Source: a virus
Lineage: Duplodnaviria > Caudoviricetes
Virus record (IMG/VR): IMGVR_UViG_3300028832_000095
Location: 64,001 to 128,000 of that record
Reading direction: 5' to 3' (one strand)
DNA length: 64,000 nucleotides
Made by a program: the position numbers and the translations under genes. Position 1 is the first letter of the stretch, and each line of letters starts with the position of its first letter. The notes under the pieces were generated by a model that did not search any database, was not told where the DNA came from, and saw only the letters and a list, made by a program, of their open reading frames with translations. Positions 2,973-11,309 of the stretch are shown here, piece after piece.

Positions 2973-4224
2973 ACAGCAACAAGAAATAGTTGACAGTACA
3001 TCTAAAAATATAATTGTAGATGCCGGATCCGGTTCTGGTAAGACTAGAACCTTAACTGAAAAAGTTAGGAAGATTCTAAATGACGGTGTTAATCCAAAAT
3101 CAATTGTAGTGATTACATTTACAAATCTAGCTGCTGATGAATTGAGAAGAAGAATATCTGACATTCCAAAATCAGATAAATGTTTTATTGGAACAATCCA
3201 TTCCTATGCAAATAAGCTACTCAAAAAGACAGGATACGAATACGACATATTCTCAGAATTCCACCAAACGGAGTTTATGAAAGCCCTTATACCAAAATAT
3301 GCAAGATATTGCACAATGGACGATTACTGTTTATTTGTAAAATACAGAAATAAGGTTCAAAGAGGAACAATGTCTGAATCTGAAATGCCGTATAAGTTTA
3401 CAGACATAAAGGTATATAAAGAAATACGTTATCTTCTTGGTGAGGAATCTAATTATAATTATACTGAAACTGTTAAAACATTATGTGAGTTAAACCACAT
3501 AATAACATTTGACGAGTTACTAAGACTTAGCACTTCCTATTTCGAGGATTCAAAAACAGTGTTAGAATATCTTTTTGTAGATGAATTACAAGACATCGGT
3601 TGGCTTGAATATGATTTTCTTAAAGGGTTAAATGCAACTCATAATTTCTGGATAGGAGATGACTTCCAATCAATATATGGGTTTAAGGGAGGGGATGTTA
3701 AGATATTCCTTTCTATTATGAATAATCCTGACTGGAAAACATACTATCTAACAGAGAATTATAGAACCCCAAAACTTGTTATGAACTATGCCAATATAAT
3801 CGTATCTAATGCCAAGAGTATAATAAAGAAAGATTGTATTTGTATGAGTAAGGTTAAGGGAGAGTTAAAGTTCAACTCAAAGAGTCAAATTGAGTCCTTT
3901 ATAGCATCTTTAGATAAAAATGAAAACTGGACATTCTTAACCAGAACAAATAAAGAATTATATGAGTTAGAAGGTAAATTCAAAAAACTAAAAGTACCAT
4001 ATTATTCTTTACAGCAACCAATAGAGTCAGAAGAAAAACGAAATCAGATTATGTCCGATAACAAAATAAAGTTAATGACAGTTCATAAGTCAAAAGGTTT
4101 GGAAGATGATAATATAGCCATATATGGAAAGTTTCCGATTAAGCCCACAAAGGATGAGGATGAGTATAAGGTATTCTATGTGGGGATAACAAGAACAAAA
4201 AATAAGTGTATTATTTTTGTGTGA
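2959..4224 (+). CDS. UvrD/PcrA-like SF1 helicase (compact)
   Basis: AGSGSGKT, ITFTN, VDELQD, GDDFQSIYGF, ENYRT, TVHKSKGLE, YVGITR. Confidence 0.9.
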   Translation: MKLSKQQQEIVDSTSKNIIVDAGSGSGKTRTLTEKVRKILNDGVNPKSIVVITFTNLAADELRRRISDIPKSDKCFIGTIHSYANKLLKKTGYEYDIFSEFHQTEFMKALIPKYARYCTMDDYCLFVKYRNKVQRGTMSESEMPYKFTDIKVYKEIRYLLGEESNYNYTETVKTLCELNHIITFDELLRLSTSYFEDSKTVLEYLFVDELQDIGWLEYDFLKGLNATHNFWIGDDFQSIYGFKGGDVKIFLSIMNNPDWKTYYLTENYRTPKLVMNYANIIVSNAKSIIKKDCICMSKVKGELKFNSKSQIESFIASLDKNENWTFLTRTNKELYELEGKFKKLKVPYYSLQQPIESEEKRNQIMSDNKIKLMTVHKSKGLEDDNIAIYGKFPIKPTKDEDEYKVFYVGITRTKNKCIIFV

Positions 4225-5906: not shown

Positions 5907-5935
5907 TTGACAAAAATGAAATAATATGTTATAAT
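5907..5935 (+). promoter_or_regulatory. sigma-A promoter of tRNA operon
   Basis: Consensus TTGACA-N17-TATAAT with extended -10. Confidence 0.9.
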
Positions 5936-6229: not shown

Positions 6230-6302
6230 TACTCCGTGGTGAAGTGGTAAACACATACGGCTTTGACCCGTACATTCGTTGGTTCAAATCCAACCGGAGT
6301 AA
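6230..6302 (+). tRNA. tRNA-Gln(UUG)
   Basis: TACTCCG/CGGAGTA; loop CTTTGAC. Confidence 0.95.
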
Positions 6303-6309
6303 TTCTTTT

Positions 6310-6384
6310 CGGAATGTAGATCAGTTTGGCTAGATCGCCACATTTGGGATGTGGAAGTCGCAGGTTCAAATCCTGTCATTCCGA
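6310..6384 (+). tRNA. tRNA-Pro(UGG)
   Basis: CGGAATG/CATTCCG; loop TTTGGGA. Confidence 0.95.
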
Positions 6385-6385
6385 T

Positions 6386-6528
6386 TATGTAATATAAGTG
6401 CTCCGGTTTTATACTACCTTGACGCTAGATAGAGGTGGAGGAAGGTGTAACAGAGTTACTTAAAGCTATTGCCTTTGAAAATCCAAGCAGGAGTTAAATG
6501 GAGTTTGATGAACAGCTTATATTATATA
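6386..6528 (+). ncRNA. putative structured spacer RNA
   Basis: 14-bp closing stem (2 G-U) filling the Pro-Leu spacer, internal hairpins. Confidence 0.5.
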
Positions 6529-6529
6529 T

Positions 6530-6615
6530 GCTACTGTGATGGAATGGCAGACATGAAAGACTTAAAATCTTTTGCCGGATACGGTGTGCGGGTTCAAGTC
6601 CCGCCAGTAGCACCA
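6530..6615 (+). tRNA. tRNA-Leu(UAA)
   Basis: GCTACTG/CAGTAGC; loop CTTAAAA; long V-arm; encoded CCA. Confidence 0.95.
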
Positions 6616-6685
6616 ATCCTCAAATTGTTGAGGATTATGTCATTTTCGTTTTGTTGTCTCCTTTTTTACTAATCTTATCTTTTTA

Positions 6686-6874
6686 TTGTGGGAAAGTCAG
6701 CAGTACAAGAAACTATGTTTTAAAAAGAGTGCATTCTTCTTTTACATAGTTTATGATTTCTCCTGTTTCCGGATCAATCATACTCTTGTAAATTGAATAT
6801 TTATAAGTCGGATTTCCTGTCTCCATTAAAATCTATTGATTTTTAATATTCACGAAATACTGACTTTCCCGCAA
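6686..6874 (+). ncRNA. putative multibranch ncRNA with C/U-rich loops
   Basis: 15-bp closing stem TTGTGGGAAAGTCAG/CTGACTTTCCCGCAA enclosing nested helices. Confidence 0.6.
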
Positions 6875-6890
6875 ACCTTATTTTCAGAAA

Positions 6891-7316
6891 GTGGTGTTGA
6901 AAGTGATACAACAAGAATCGTTACAAATTCCATGTGAAGGAATATTTTGGGTAATAGATAATTGCTTAGTCTATTTTGCAGATAAGGTAAATCCAAAAGA
7001 TCCTTATGATTCAACAGATCTTCTACATAAAGATACATGGAGAGAAATAAAAGACGAATATCTTGTAGACGGAAAACAGGTTTCCTTTGATTATTTTCCT
7101 CGTGGAAGAGTTGAAACATTAGTAATTCAAGATACTGACGGAACCTTAGATCACTATGAAGCGACTATATATTTAGATAAATGTATCAACAATAAAGAAT
7201 TGATCTCGGAGGTTATAGATACGTTTAGACTATACCTTCCAAATGTGAAGGTTGAAAATGGAGGTCAGTTATTTATAGATGGTAGTCACTATACTTGTAA
7301 TAAGTGTAGAAAATGA
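6891..7316 (+). CDS. hypothetical protein, paralog of 46389..46814
   Basis: GIFW..H..W..Y(F/Y)PRGRVE..DGS(D)HY.C shared. Confidence 0.75.
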   Translation: MVLKVIQQESLQIPCEGIFWVIDNCLVYFADKVNPKDPYDSTDLLHKDTWREIKDEYLVDGKQVSFDYFPRGRVETLVIQDTDGTLDHYEATIYLDKCINNKELISEVIDTFRLYLPNVKVENGGQLFIDGSHYTCNKCRK

Positions 7317-7319
7317 TAG

Positions 7320-7437
7320 GGAATCTTCGTTTAAAAGTGATTAGCAACCAAAAAGAAAGACTGAATTATCAGTTTAGTTAATCCGAAGACAGTTCCTGAT
7401 CAGAACTATGTAAGGTACAAACTTACAGATTCCACCA
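7320..7437 (+). ncRNA. tRNA-like RNA with acceptor stem, T-like arm and CCA end
   Basis: GGAATCT/AGATTCC-A-CCA; GTAAG-GTACAAA-CTTAC arm; no canonical D arm. Confidence 0.6.
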
Positions 7438-7443
7438 ATATTT

Positions 7444-7516
7444 GCCGTGGTAGCATAAATGGATATGCAACATCCTTCTAAGATGTCAGATACGGGTTCG
7501 AGTCCTGTCCACGGTA
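7444..7516 (+). tRNA. tRNA-Arg(UCU)
   Basis: GCCGTGG/CCACGGT; loop CTTCTAA. Confidence 0.95.
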
Positions 7517-7522
7517 TGTTAT

Positions 7523-7676
7523 GTAGGAGTGGCGCAAGAGGTAAGACACACCGGATATAGAATCCGGTGGAAGAATTAAACATTGGTGAGTTCGACTATA
7601 ACCTAGGATGATGTCAGAACAAAATGTCCCTTGTTTATGATATCCTGTGTAGGTTCGAATCCTACCTCCTACACCA
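7523..7676 (+). tRNA. tRNA-Leu(UAG)-like RNA with 81-nt variable-arm insertion
   Basis: GTAGGAG/CTCCTAC-A-CCA; CCGGA-TATAGAA-TCCGG; GTAGG-TTCGAAT-CCTAC. Confidence 0.75.
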
Positions 7677-7680
7677 ATAA

Positions 7681-7798
7681 GTCCAGACCCAAACTCCGTA
7701 GAACAATATGGGGTTTAAACGGGGAAAAATAAGTGATTAGCTTATGGAGAAAGGTGGACGCACTTGATGACGGTTTGCAAGGGCTTTACGTCATCCAC
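7681..7798 (+). ncRNA. putative structured spacer RNA
   Basis: GTCCA/TGGAC enclosing two hairpins, then GATGACG/CGTCATC hairpin. Confidence 0.4.
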
Positions 7799-7804
7799 AA
7801 ATAT

Positions 7805-7877
7805 TCCCTGTTAGATCAATCGGTAGATCAACTGACTGTTAATCAGTGGGTTGCTGGTTCAAGTCCAGCACAGGGAG
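7805..7877 (+). tRNA. tRNA-Asn(GUU)
   Basis: TCCCTGT/ACAGGGA; loop CTGTTAA. Confidence 0.95.
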
Positions 7878-7881
7878 TTCA

Positions 7882-8092
7882 GATAAGAGTGTTTAGGTTT
7901 GTTGATTTAGACGTTCATTCTTATCACCTGTAAAAGTATCTTTTGGTTTTTCGGTTTGCGTTTCCATTGGTAGCCATGCAGGTGCCTCCTTTCTTAAAAA
8001 TCAACTGAGGAAACAACACCTTTGGTGAATGGTGTGAAATACACCAGGCTCTGTGAAAACATTTACCTCACTTTCTGTTTTCACAGAGCTTT
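7882..8092 (+). ncRNA. structured trailer of tRNA operon with anti-SD elements
   Basis: GATAAGAGTG/CATTCTTATC, CACCTGTA/TGCAGGTG, CCTCCTTTCTT, 14-bp terminal hairpin. Confidence 0.45.
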
Positions 8093-8126
8093 CCTAAATT
8101 ATATCAATATTTCGGAGATGATAGAT

Positions 8127-8615
8127 ATGCGTGAAGATCTTATTCTAAGACTTAATGATAACATAGAATATTTAGAGGAATTAAAAAAGGTGTTACAGGA
8201 ATCTAAACCATCTAATATCGTTTTAGATTATTATGAAACATCTTATGTCGATACAATTGCAGATCACATCTACAAACCTAGGGCAGTATTTGATATACCA
8301 GAACCTTGTGAGAAGTGTAATGGAACAGGCGTTATTCAAGTATCTTCCGATAAAGATATTCACTATAAAATGTGTGATTGTTTCTATTCAACAAGGAAGT
8401 ATGTTGTAGAACCCCTTGCAGTAAGATCCATTGTAGATGCCGAAACACCTTATTATATGTGTTTTGACGGACTTGATATTATTTGTATTCCAATTCAAAG
8501 CGTAAAGAATTCTTTTTGTGTTGAAGATGTATATAATGAATATTATTATAAGAATAAAGAGGACTGTGAGAAAGCCTGTGATTGCTTGAATGGGGGTTGT
8601 ATAAATGACAAATAA
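8127..8615 (+). CDS. hypothetical protein with DnaJ-like Cys motif
   Basis: CEKCNGTG; start moved to ATG behind GGAG. Confidence 0.6.
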   Translation: MREDLILRLNDNIEYLEELKKVLQESKPSNIVLDYYETSYVDTIADHIYKPRAVFDIPEPCEKCNGTGVIQVSSDKDIHYKMCDCFYSTRKYVVEPLAVRSIVDAETPYYMCFDGLDIICIPIQSVKNSFCVEDVYNEYYYKNKEDCEKACDCLNGGCINDK

Positions 8616-8946
8616 TAAAAACTCAACACGTTATTATAGTGACAGACATGAAAAAAGAACTGCTAAGAATATCGGCGCAAAGGTTCAAACAAGCAGCGGA
8701 TCAAGTTCTTTTCTAAAAGGTGATGTTATTTCTGCAAAATGTCTTATCGAGTGTAAAACAAGCACATCCGAGAAGAAATCATTTTCAATCAAAAAAGAAT
8801 GGTTGGAGAAGTTGGAAGAACAGTGTTTTGCAATGGGAAAGAAACATCCGATATTAGTGTTTGACTTTGGTGACGGTAATAATTACTACATTCTAAACGA
8901 ACAGATGATAAGGAAGTTTGTTGAATTTTTAGATGGTGAAGAATAA
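8605..8946 (+). CDS. small PD-(D/E)xK nuclease (Hjc/resolvase-like)
   Basis: E..SGS..KGDV..LIECK. Confidence 0.65.
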   Translation: MTNNKNSTRYYSDRHEKRTAKNIGAKVQTSSGSSSFLKGDVISAKCLIECKTSTSEKKSFSIKKEWLEKLEEQCFAMGKKHPILVFDFGDGNNYYILNEQMIRKFVEFLDGEE

Positions 8947-9071: not shown

Positions 9072-11309
9072 ATGGAAACATTGGCAGTAAAGTATAGACC
9101 TAAGACATTTGATGATATGGTAGAACAAAGTGTTGTAAAAGACATTTTGATGAATCATATTAAGGAGAAGAAAGTAAGAAATGGTTATCTGTTTAGCGGA
9201 AGCGCTGGCTGCGGAAAAGCACAACCTTTGTATAGCAAGGTACTAACTCCTAAAGGTTACATTGCTATGGGTGAGGTTTCTGAAGGAACAGAAGTTATAA
9301 CACATACGGGATCAGTTGCATCCGTTTCGGAAGTATTTCCACAGGGAGAACGTGACATTTATGAGATACAGTTTAGTGATAGAACAAGTATTCGTGTGGC
9401 AGATAATCACCTAAATGTTGTATATAGGTACAATCAAAATAAGAAAATGAGAGAAGATTTTGTATTAACAACAATGGAGCTTATAGAACTATTAAAAAAA
9501 TCTAAAGATAAGATTAGAGTTGACCTTCCTGTGGTTGACTTTGATAAGACGGATGTTCCAATTGATCCATATCTATTAGGTTGCTTAATAGGTGACGGAT
9601 CACTCCATAATAATTTTGGTTTTTCTAATTCAGAAAAAGATGTTATTGATAAAGTATCCGGTATAGTTAGTAAGTATGATTGTTGCTTAGTACACAAATC
9701 TGGTTGTGATTATGCTATAAGTAGAACAACAGATTCTTTTAAAAATTACTATGTTTTTGAAGGAATTACTTATAAAGGACCTTATAAATTGATTGATAGA
9801 CTTGTTGAATTGGGTTATCCGAAATTTGATTCTGAAACAATTTTACAATTATCTTGCAATAAGGCGAAGATTATAGTTTCTAGGTATCCTGAACTCATCG
9901 GTAAAATAACCAAGATAACCAATGAAAATTATAATCAGCAAAATAAACTTTTAACACTCATAAAGAATATGGGTCTTGACGTTGGATCTAAGGACAAATT
10001 TATACCGAAAGAATATCTTATAAATGATGCCAATACAAGACTTCAAATTTTACGAGGTCTTTATGATACCGATGGATATACATCGTCTGGTGGGGAAACA
10101 AGTTTCTCCACATCTAGTAAAAAACTGTCCGATGATTTTGCTTTTTTAGTTAGATCTTTGGGTTGTCGTGATACGGTTATTGTTAAAAAATGTGGATACA
10201 GAAATCCAAATGGTGATTATGTAGAGTGTAGCAATAGTTATGAGCACTATATTAAATTTCCAAATAATTTAGTATATTGTTCTTCTGAAAAACATTTAGC
10301 TAGACGTAAAGAAAGACAACACGATCCAATCAAGAGTATTGTAGATATTAAATATGTAGGAAAAGAATTTTGTCAGTGTATTTATGTAGATCATGAAGAT
10401 CATACATACATTTCGGATGATTTTATTCCTACACATAATACAACCTCGGCACGTTGTTTCGCAAAGAGTCTTAATAGTTCTATAACAGAGCTTGACGCAG
10501 CTTCCCATAGTAGTGTGGATGATGTAAGGGATCTTATTAAAGATTCAAGACTGAAACCGATGGGAACTGATTATAGAGTATACATCATAGATGAAGCGCA
10601 TTCGCTTAGTAATCAGGCTTGGCAAGCTCTACTCAAGACATTGGAAGAGCCAACACCAACAAGCATTTTTATTTTTGCTACAACAGATCCTCAAAAAATT
10701 CCAAATACAATTTTATCCAGAATTCAAAGGTATAACTTCAAAAGAATTTCACATAAAGGAATTGTAAACAGATTAAAATACATACTTGATTCTGAAAATA
10801 AGAATGGTTGTAACTATACATATACCGAAGATGCCATTGATTATATCGCAAAATTATCTGAGGGTGGTATGAGAGATTCCATAACACTTATGGAGAAGTC
10901 ATTAGGTTATTCTGATAATCTTACAATGGAATCTGTAACAAAGGCTCTCGGAACTGTTGACTATGAAACAATGTTCACACTCACGGACAGCATTTATAAT
11001 ATGGACAGAAAATGTGTTATTTCGTGTATTGAGGAAACACATAGGGAAGGTCTTGATCTAAAACAGTTTATCAAGAATTATAGCTTTTTTGTTCTTGACC
11101 TTTGTAAATATGATGTATTTAGGTCTTTTGAGTATCTTCAGATGCCGAATACATATGAAGATAGGATGAAGAAGTATACACCAGATCACTATAAGTTCTT
11201 TACAGACTTACTCAATACAGTAATGCAACTCAATACAGATATTAAATGGGAATCTACTCCGAAGCCACTTATTGAATCAACACTTGTTCTTCTTTGTTCG
11301 GAGGGGTGA
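9072..11309 (+). CDS. dnaX: DNA polymerase III gamma/tau clamp-loader subunit, intein-containing
   Basis: LAVKYRPKTF, GCGK|TT, ELDAAS, IIDEAH, LLKTLEEP, TILSR, GGMRD. Confidence 0.93.
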   Translation: METLAVKYRPKTFDDMVEQSVVKDILMNHIKEKKVRNGYLFSGSAGCGKAQPLYSKVLTPKGYIAMGEVSEGTEVITHTGSVASVSEVFPQGERDIYEIQFSDRTSIRVADNHLNVVYRYNQNKKMREDFVLTTMELIELLKKSKDKIRVDLPVVDFDKTDVPIDPYLLGCLIGDGSLHNNFGFSNSEKDVIDKVSGIVSKYDCCLVHKSGCDYAISRTTDSFKNYYVFEGITYKGPYKLIDRLVELGYPKFDSETILQLSCNKAKIIVSRYPELIGKITKITNENYNQQNKLLTLIKNMGLDVGSKDKFIPKEYLINDANTRLQILRGLYDTDGYTSSGGETSFSTSSKKLSDDFAFLVRSLGCRDTVIVKKCGYRNPNGDYVECSNSYEHYIKFPNNLVYCSSEKHLARRKERQHDPIKSIVDIKYVGKEFCQCIYVDHEDHTYISDDFIPTHNTTSARCFAKSLNSSITELDAASHSSVDDVRDLIKDSRLKPMGTDYRVYIIDEAHSLSNQAWQALLKTLEEPTPTSIFIFATTDPQKIPNTILSRIQRYNFKRISHKGIVNRLKYILDSENKNGCNYTYTEDAIDYIAKLSEGGMRDSITLMEKSLGYSDNLTMESVTKALGTVDYETMFTLTDSIYNMDRKCVISCIEETHREGLDLKQFIKNYSFFVLDLCKYDVFRSFEYLQMPNTYEDRMKKYTPDHYKFFTDLLNTVMQLNTDIKWESTPKPLIESTLVLLCSEG
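9219..10439 (+). mobile_element. Ala-starting (class 3-type) intein with LAGLIDADG endonuclease
   Basis: AQPLYSKVLTP..CQCIYV..IPTHN/T; LLGCLIGDG and LRGLYDTDG; 407 aa inside the P-loop. Confidence 0.9.

Follow-up and report, generated by a model that had tools for sequence, protein, structure and literature searches.

The 189-nt region at positions 6686-6874 of the window (the whole 64,000-nt stretch of DNA analysed here, i.e. bases 64001-128000 of a 201.9-kb, 201,895-nt IMG/VR rumen jumbo-phage contig) is, on balance, probably best explained as a conserved intergenic RNA hairpin, termed hp2, the tip of which has been replaced by a 159-nt two-domain insert, with a processing, stability or insulator role of the hairpin and a dispensable interior. 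Judged from the alignment of related phages, the conserved and covarying unit is the basal hairpin, which corresponds to the closing stem P1 of the element and is the only helix under visible selection, and the 159-nt interior is a lineage-specific replacement of the 4-28-nt tip of hp2. Uncultured jumbo phages from the rumen are documented here to carry a conserved, covarying hairpin module in their tRNA islands, and the tip of hp2 tolerates, or exchanges, large structured inserts. It was the comparison with close relatives that revealed selection on the basal stem only, and the case calls for caution, as an extreme folding z-score together with a repeated loop motif failed to predict conservation.

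The window has a GC content of 32% with a positive GC skew throughout and carries almost all large ORFs on the + strand, and the neighbourhood of the element is a replication module that encodes a UvrD-like helicase, an HD phosphohydrolase, an HTH protein, a resolvase and an intein-containing clamp loader. A sigma-70 promoter of perfect consensus (TTGACA-17-TATAAT with TG; 5907-5935, + strand) drives a first tRNA sub-operon of tRNA-Lys, Ile, Gln, Pro and Leu(UAA). The final gene of this sub-operon, tRNA-Leu(UAA) (6530-6615, + strand), is followed by the hairpin hp1 (AATCCTCAA/TTGAGGATT, 6615-6636), which together with its T-rich tail (6615-6663, + strand) was interpreted as an intrinsic terminator. 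This tail passes into a box, TTCGTTTTGTTGTCTCCTT (6645-6663), that is conserved and common to the related contigs L048, L004, L019/20 and L021, whereas the stem sequence of hp1 is different in each lineage. Further 3' of hp1 follow the element, ORF141, a tRNA-like RNA, tRNA-Arg, a 154-nt tRNA with a giant variable arm, and tRNA-Asn. A sigma-70-like promoter was not found between hp1 and ORF141 (6636-6903), and transcription of the element would therefore depend on read-through of hp1, unless a phage promoter has escaped recognition. P1 itself was not called as a terminator, as the U-run begins 8 nt past its stem.

On the + strand, the region 6686-6874 folds with a minimum free energy (MFE) of -54.2 kcal/mol, as compared to a mean of -29.3 +/- 3.7 kcal/mol for dinucleotide shuffles (z -6.8; 0/200 shuffles as good), and a second set of dinucleotide shuffles gave a z-score of -7.7. 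The remaining spacers of the island show only moderate folding (z -1.1 to -4.6), and the element is an outlier among them. One of these spacers, the 144-nt stretch between tRNA-Pro and tRNA-Leu (6386-6529), is closed as a whole by a stem of ~20 bp, with a z-score of only -1.9, and is ~91% conserved in a sister strain.

In a preliminary description of this DNA, the region had been described as a 189-nt multibranch RNA, and every stem listed there is present in the MFE structure. The closing stem P1 (14-15 bp; 6686/7-6700 with 6860-6873/4) consists of a 5' arm at 6686-6700 with the core GGGAAAGT and a 3' arm at 6860-6874 with the core ACTTTCCC, which are the two arms of the conserved hairpin hp2, and it encloses the 159-nt interior at 6701-6859, at the place of which the sister strains have 28 nt. 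The interior is arranged as a junction CAG, the domain P2 (6704-6790), a junction AAU, the domain P3 (6794-6852) and a junction CGAAAUA. Domain P2 is a three-way junction, in which the stem P2 (6704-6710 with 6784-6790) carries the hairpins P2a (6711-6751) and P2b (6752-6782), and domain P3 is a stem (6794-6801 with 6845-6852) that bears the hairpin P3a (6805-6842). The interior helices are near-perfect, and the three-way junction contains just one unpaired nucleotide. A loop motif is found twice, as CCTGTTTCC in the loop of P2b (6762-6770) and as CCTGTCTCC in P3a (6816-6824), where it is mostly unpaired; all these features are given for the + strand.

The minus strand of the same region folds equally well (-57.7 kcal/mol, z -7.2), and the mirrored + strand structure scored on the minus strand gives -57.4; z is thus about -7 on either strand, and thermodynamics cannot assign the strand. 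It had been argued earlier that a G-U pair favours the + strand. The G-U pairs do fit the + strand, on which the fold has four of them as compared to two in the minus-strand fold. The imperfections of the helices on the + strand are all G-U pairs, and A-C mismatches were not seen inside the helices. There is thus a weak preference for the + strand, which carries all genes and tRNAs and on which the fold has G-U pairs that would turn into A-C mismatches on the opposite strand.

The comparison with sister strains separates the basal stem from the interior. Five contigs from different rumen assemblies (L048-L052), found via the 90% cluster of ORF141, are 91-94% identical to the window over 6278-6700 and 6897-8700 and have no alignment to 6701-6896. 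At the position of the element, 5/5 of them have a simple hairpin, TGGGAAAGTT-A-GATAATT...AATTATC-AACTTTCCCA, with a length of ~57 nt, roughly 23 bp and -24.7 kcal/mol, the outer stem of which is P1 of this phage. Between this phage and L048, the pair C6696-G6864 of P1 is replaced by U-A, i.e. by a double compensatory change, and U6689-G6871 is also replaced by U-A. More distant syntenic relatives have a hairpin there as well. The hairpin arms of L019/20, TTTAGGGAAGT/ACTTCCCTAAA, differ from those of this phage by two further double changes and by the coordinated loss of one A-U pair. The hairpin of L021 reads TAGGAAATA-GTAA-TATTTCCTA, and that of L004 has the arms GCGTAAGA/TCTTACGC, followed by a 3' flank, AACCTATTTTT, as in this phage, where a similar sequence, AAACCTTATTTT, lies directly 3' of the 3' arm of P1. 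The hairpins of L048-L052, L004, L019/20 and L021 all lie at one fixed position past the conserved box. The module that is common to the syntenic relatives thus consists of tRNA-Leu, hp1 with its lineage-specific stem, the box TCGTTTT(T)GTTSTCTCCTT, a T-rich spacer and hp2, and is followed on the 3' side by tRNA-Leu, or by ORF141 and then more tRNAs. If hp2 is defined by its fixed position after hp1 and the box and by covarying arms, it is found in this phage, in L048-L052, in L004, in L019/20 and in L021.

How may hp2 function? In the preferred reading, hp2 would act at the RNA level, in a + strand transcript whose existence and ends we infer, and it would serve as a determinant of processing or stability or as an insulator between the first tRNA sub-operon and the unit of ORF141 and the distal tRNAs. 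An RNase III-type stem, an exonuclease-blocking stem or a 5'-leader stem would be examples of such roles. Between lineages, however, hp2 ranges in length from 9 to about 23 bp, and one strict requirement of the RNase III type would not agree with this. Internal duplication probably contributed to the growth of the branched interior, as the two motif-bearing hairpins P2b and P3a share GAUUUC..CUGUYUCC; they can be aligned as GATT(TC)TCCTGTYTCC, with a local alignment of marginal significance (108/2000 shuffles as good). The interior would then be a tolerated and dispensable passenger, and its processing could release a stable by-product RNA, like T4 RNA C or RNA D. As the dispensability is deduced from one sister lineage, whose entire intergenic segment (about 6663-6896) has diverged, the two alleles could also be alternative functional versions that are swapped by recombination. 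In a second assembly (protein P0042; 133.8-kb contig; up to 201.8 kb in the cluster table), the distance from the start of the HTH gene to the start of ORF141 is 1914 nt, as here, and from these coordinates the long allele probably persists in at least one further sample.

Beyond this, the interior is an orphan, strain-level feature, possibly without function. Rfam 15, including the models for 6S, CsrB/Rsm, Y RNA/YrlA, GOLLD, ROOL, drum, RAGATH and hammerhead/twister/pistol/hatchet, returned tRNAs only, with gathering thresholds as well as at E<=10, and gave no match to 6686-6846 on either strand; the sole Rfam overlap with the element was a chance match to SNORD63 (6847-6918, minus strand, 21 bits, E 1.1); the same library does detect drum and RAGATH-18 in the tRNA islands of relatives. 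A blastn search against a phage collection returned tRNA matches only. With R1, a covariance model built from the single sequence of the element and applied to 27 sources and to 4 whole phage records, as well as with blastn and nhmmer, the interior was matched only by itself, be it in the genome of this phage, in three whole records of related phages or in 26 related loci. Likewise, nhmmer and blastn with the 189 nt found nothing in 13 IMG/VR relatives, identified via the HD-phosphohydrolase gene and ORF141, and in 11 syntenic loci identified via ORF141 homologues. Pattern searches gave a similar result: a two-loop pattern had 2 matches in IMG/VR, both in repetitive coding sequence, a two-hairpin pattern had 6 matches in JGI metagenomes, all in tandem repeats or coding sequence, and patterns for the long and the short allele of hp2 had 0 matches in IMG/VR. 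A pattern for the conserved box found the L004 contig only, besides unrelated chance matches in IMG/VR. Genome-wide, long-range inverted repeats were not enriched (83 seeds versus 45-69 in shuffles) and revealed no second element, and a 200-nt sliding fold scan found no family of similar elements.

Several known classes of RNAs and mobile elements were considered for the element and rejected. The length would fit that of 6S RNA (180-200 nt), but the fold is a two-domain multibranch structure without a central bubble, and there is no covariance-model match. A retron msr/msd RNA could be suspected due to the inverted repeat P1, but an RT domain is absent from the neighbouring ORFs. The three-way junctions lack the core motifs of a hammerhead, for which a covariance-model match is likewise missing. 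An origin of the interior from tRNA was dismissed after alignments to the T-arm region of the giant-arm tRNA and to antisense tRNA-Leu, which looked suggestive at first but were no better than those of shuffles. A MITE-like or otherwise repeated palindromic mobile element does not agree with a single copy in the 202-kb genome, no copy in related records and the lack of a terminal duplication; moreover, the supposed terminal inverted repeat, P1, is homologous to a resident hairpin in relatives, which also counts against such an element.

What alternatives exist for a hairpin with a passenger at its tip? The interior looks more designed than a neutral passenger should, with its near-perfect helices and a motif that is repeated and found nowhere else in the genome, and a functional, lineage-specific small RNA has to be weighed, in which hp2 would be the scaffold for two UCCUGUYUCC loops that bind a protein or an RNA, be it as anti-SD-like antisense RNA or as decoy or sponge for an RNA-binding factor of the host or the phage. 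We regard this as unlikely, albeit as an option to be taken seriously. In the whole 201,895-nt genome, CCTGTYTCC has only two + strand copies, at 6762 and 6816, i.e. in the two loops, and chance would give about 0.15 copies per strand, as estimated from base composition. The z-score of about -7, the G-U pairs that fit the + strand and the long allele that seems to be kept in the second assembly (P0042) would agree with such a module, and ornate RNAs beside phage tRNAs are a known theme, as exemplified by GOLLD and ROOL (PMC5737381). On the other hand, the interior is absent from the sister strains and every other relative examined, has no demonstrable covariation and has neither promoter nor terminator of its own, the similarity between the two hairpins is only marginal, and no convincing target was found in the phage.

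The anti-SD idea itself, which came from the preliminary description, is not supported, and it fails by a condition set in that description, for which unconserved loops would be a refutation: both loop-bearing domains are missing from sister strains with 91-94% identical flanks. It had further been stated that both loops contain TCTCC and CCTGT. A motif, CCUGUYUCC, is indeed shared, but the UCC (6761-6763) of the CUCC in loop 1, i.e. in P2b, pairs with GGA (6771-6773) with a probability of about 1, and the free part of this loop is UGUUUCC rather than 17 nt. The exact complements of the motif on the + strand, GGARACAGG, all lie inside coding regions and none at starts, a duplex scan of the phage for targets of the loops gave no standout site at translation starts, and the best duplexes were formed with coding sequences of the D-x-x-T-G-E-I type, not with start regions. 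As the + strand contains 231 AGGAG and 235 GGAGA strings of the SD type, a CUCC(U) of 4-6 nt would pair with nearly every SD of the phage, and there would thus be no specificity.

RsaE/RoxS-type sRNAs of Firmicutes with C-rich loops, and other anti-SD antisense RNAs, possess a promoter and a terminator of their own, contain conserved CCCC/UCCC motifs and act on defined targets. The element may be compared to them by its pyrimidine-rich motifs in two hairpin loops, which could pair with G-rich Shine-Dalgarno sequences, but it has no promoter or terminator, its motif is CUCC, with one copy paired, there is no conservation, and no target was found. An RsaE/RoxS-like anti-SD sRNA was thus rejected, given that the motif is absent from sister strains, and an RsaE/RoxS-like independent transcription unit was rejected as well, as there is no promoter-like site at 6636-6903 and P1 was not called as a terminator. 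A reading of the loops as CsrA-site-like on the minus strand, also mentioned earlier, and thus a sponge of the CsrB/RsmZ type, was discarded: there are only two loops, no minus-strand promoter or terminator is found nearby, and nearly all large ORFs are on the + strand.

In a more specific form, a strain-specific ornate RNA would have been grafted onto the hp2 scaffold, and its two identical loops would act in trans, either as decoy or sponge for a host RNA-binding defence or translation factor or as antisense regulator. This appears quite improbable; if true, the hairpin tip would be a hot-swappable slot for RNA “accessory genes”, and an insert that proved functional would exemplify modular RNA innovation in phages at the level of strains.

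A second alternative is that the interior arose at the DNA level and has no function as RNA, being the product of a palindromic expansion or a scar left by recombination at a hypervariable intergenic hotspot, where fragments may also have been captured. The equally good folding of both strands is compatible with this, and the tRNA island is a hotspot of indels, as seen for an HNH endonuclease gene of L048 that is missing here. In addition, the reverse complement of P2b shares 23/27 positions with a RecA-like gene of the related phage L006, in the stretch that codes for IDPETGEI (blastn E 0.002), and the peptide encoded on the minus strand reaches a score of 52 with this RecA-like protein, which 0/500 shuffles reach. 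This similarity is limited to about 27 nt, however, and the phage's own RecA-like gene reads IDIDSGEI and gives no significant match. The interior is present as a single copy, with no terminal duplication or further copies, and the absence of A-C mismatches from helices whose imperfections are all G-U on the + strand does not favour a DNA-level product. The covariation of the basal helix between lineages requires that pairing be under selection. An origin without RNA function is, in our view, rather improbable. The minus-strand peptide belongs to an open frame of 37 codons on the minus strand of 6686-6874, METGNPTYKYSIYKSMIDPETGEIINYVKEECTLFKT (METGN...IDPETGEI...), which reads both loops as E-T-G and matches the C-terminal region of the L006 RecA-like protein with its IDPETGEI. 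The frame is probably not a gene, as it lacks an SD and lies on the non-coding strand, and the 37-aa ORF was treated as a by-product.

Thirdly, the element could be a cis-acting 5' leader of ORF141, serving either as a translational operator, with the ORF141 protein as its ligand, or as a structure that gates a weak start. ORF141 (137 aa from the GTG at 6903; 6903-7316, + strand) starts 28 nt after P1 with a weak GTG and a GGTG-type SD, and its family always occurs inside tRNA clusters, which suggests RNA-related work. Yet the SD and the start codon are outside the fold, ORF141 shows >90% identity to its counterparts in the sister strains, which do not have the interior, in most relatives it directly follows a tRNA or another gene without such a leader, and its structural model has no recognisable RNA-binding fold, with no Foldseek match at E<=0.001. 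A leader function of this kind is therefore very unlikely. With respect to the protein itself, homologues (P0002-P0037; 135-145 aa) are located inside the phage tRNA cluster in every relative examined (the L004 copy at 9339-9767), and their invariant residues include H42, W46, P66-R67-G68-R69, D126, H129, Y130 and C132. There is no match in Pfam or PHROG, and the AF2 model, which is confident (pLDDT 89, pTM 0.83), found nothing convincing in the PDB (best VIA Z 4.3, Foldseek E>=0.015). From its genomic position, ORF141 may be an uncharacterised tRNA- or RNA-related protein.

Coming back to hp2 and its passenger, which known RNAs are comparable? T4 RNA C and RNA D are small stable RNAs of unknown role from the T4 tRNA region (PMC3014915). 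The element could be likened to them as a structured non-tRNA RNA on the tRNA strand, and it is likewise located within a phage tRNA cluster; in contrast to RNA C and RNA D, it follows a terminator-like hairpin, is not directly flanked by tRNAs, and is strain-specific instead of being conserved across a phage genus. GOLLD and ROOL are ornate multi-helix RNAs that often lie beside tRNA genes in phages or prophages, and ROOL was first found in samples from the rumen, which is the habitat also of the relatives of this phage (PMC5737381). However, these RNAs are 580-800 nt long and widely conserved with covariation, whereas the element has 189 nt and is an orphan that matches no Rfam model. Comparable in architecture are apical expansion segments or variable arms, in which a conserved basal helix carries a lineage-specific structured insert at its tip, with the difference that the host helix of the element is an intergenic hairpin and not an rRNA or a tRNA.

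Other structured RNAs were seen in these islands. The 154-nt tRNA unit at 7523-7676 scores 29.9 bits as tRNA and has a branched variable region of ~81 nt, and a 132-nt tRNA match of 46.8 bits is found in L021 at 2317-2448; structured inserts into RNA loops seem to be recurrent in this phage group. L021 also has a drum RNA (3886-3988; Rfam, 44.9 bits) immediately upstream of tRNA-Arg, and a RAGATH-18 RNA is located in the tRNA island of L025 (4591-4652; Rfam, 54.1 bits), which shows that these islands are rich in structured RNAs. In the phage studied here, the slot before tRNA-Arg is occupied by a 118-nt CCA-ended tRNA-like RNA (7320-7437) without a match to drum. In L048, an HNH endonuclease gene and a 136-aa ORF (1104-1742) lie between tRNA-Lys and tRNA-Ile, both of which are missing here (about 6130), and L019-L021 as well as L025 have HNH genes in their islands, too; the tRNA island is thus a hotspot of indels by mobile endonucleases.

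Two observations concern the contig as a whole and its replication module. The contig ends with a repeat of its first 136 nt, in which 127/136 positions are identical; the record is labelled linear and 84% complete, but given this terminal repeat the genome may be essentially complete and circularly permuted or terminally redundant. The clamp-loader gene (DNA pol III gamma/tau-like, 9072-11309) contains an interrupting intein that bears a LAGLIDADG/Hom_end domain, and among the relatives its homologues carry the intein in L024 and L026 and are free of it in L017, L021, L022 and L048.
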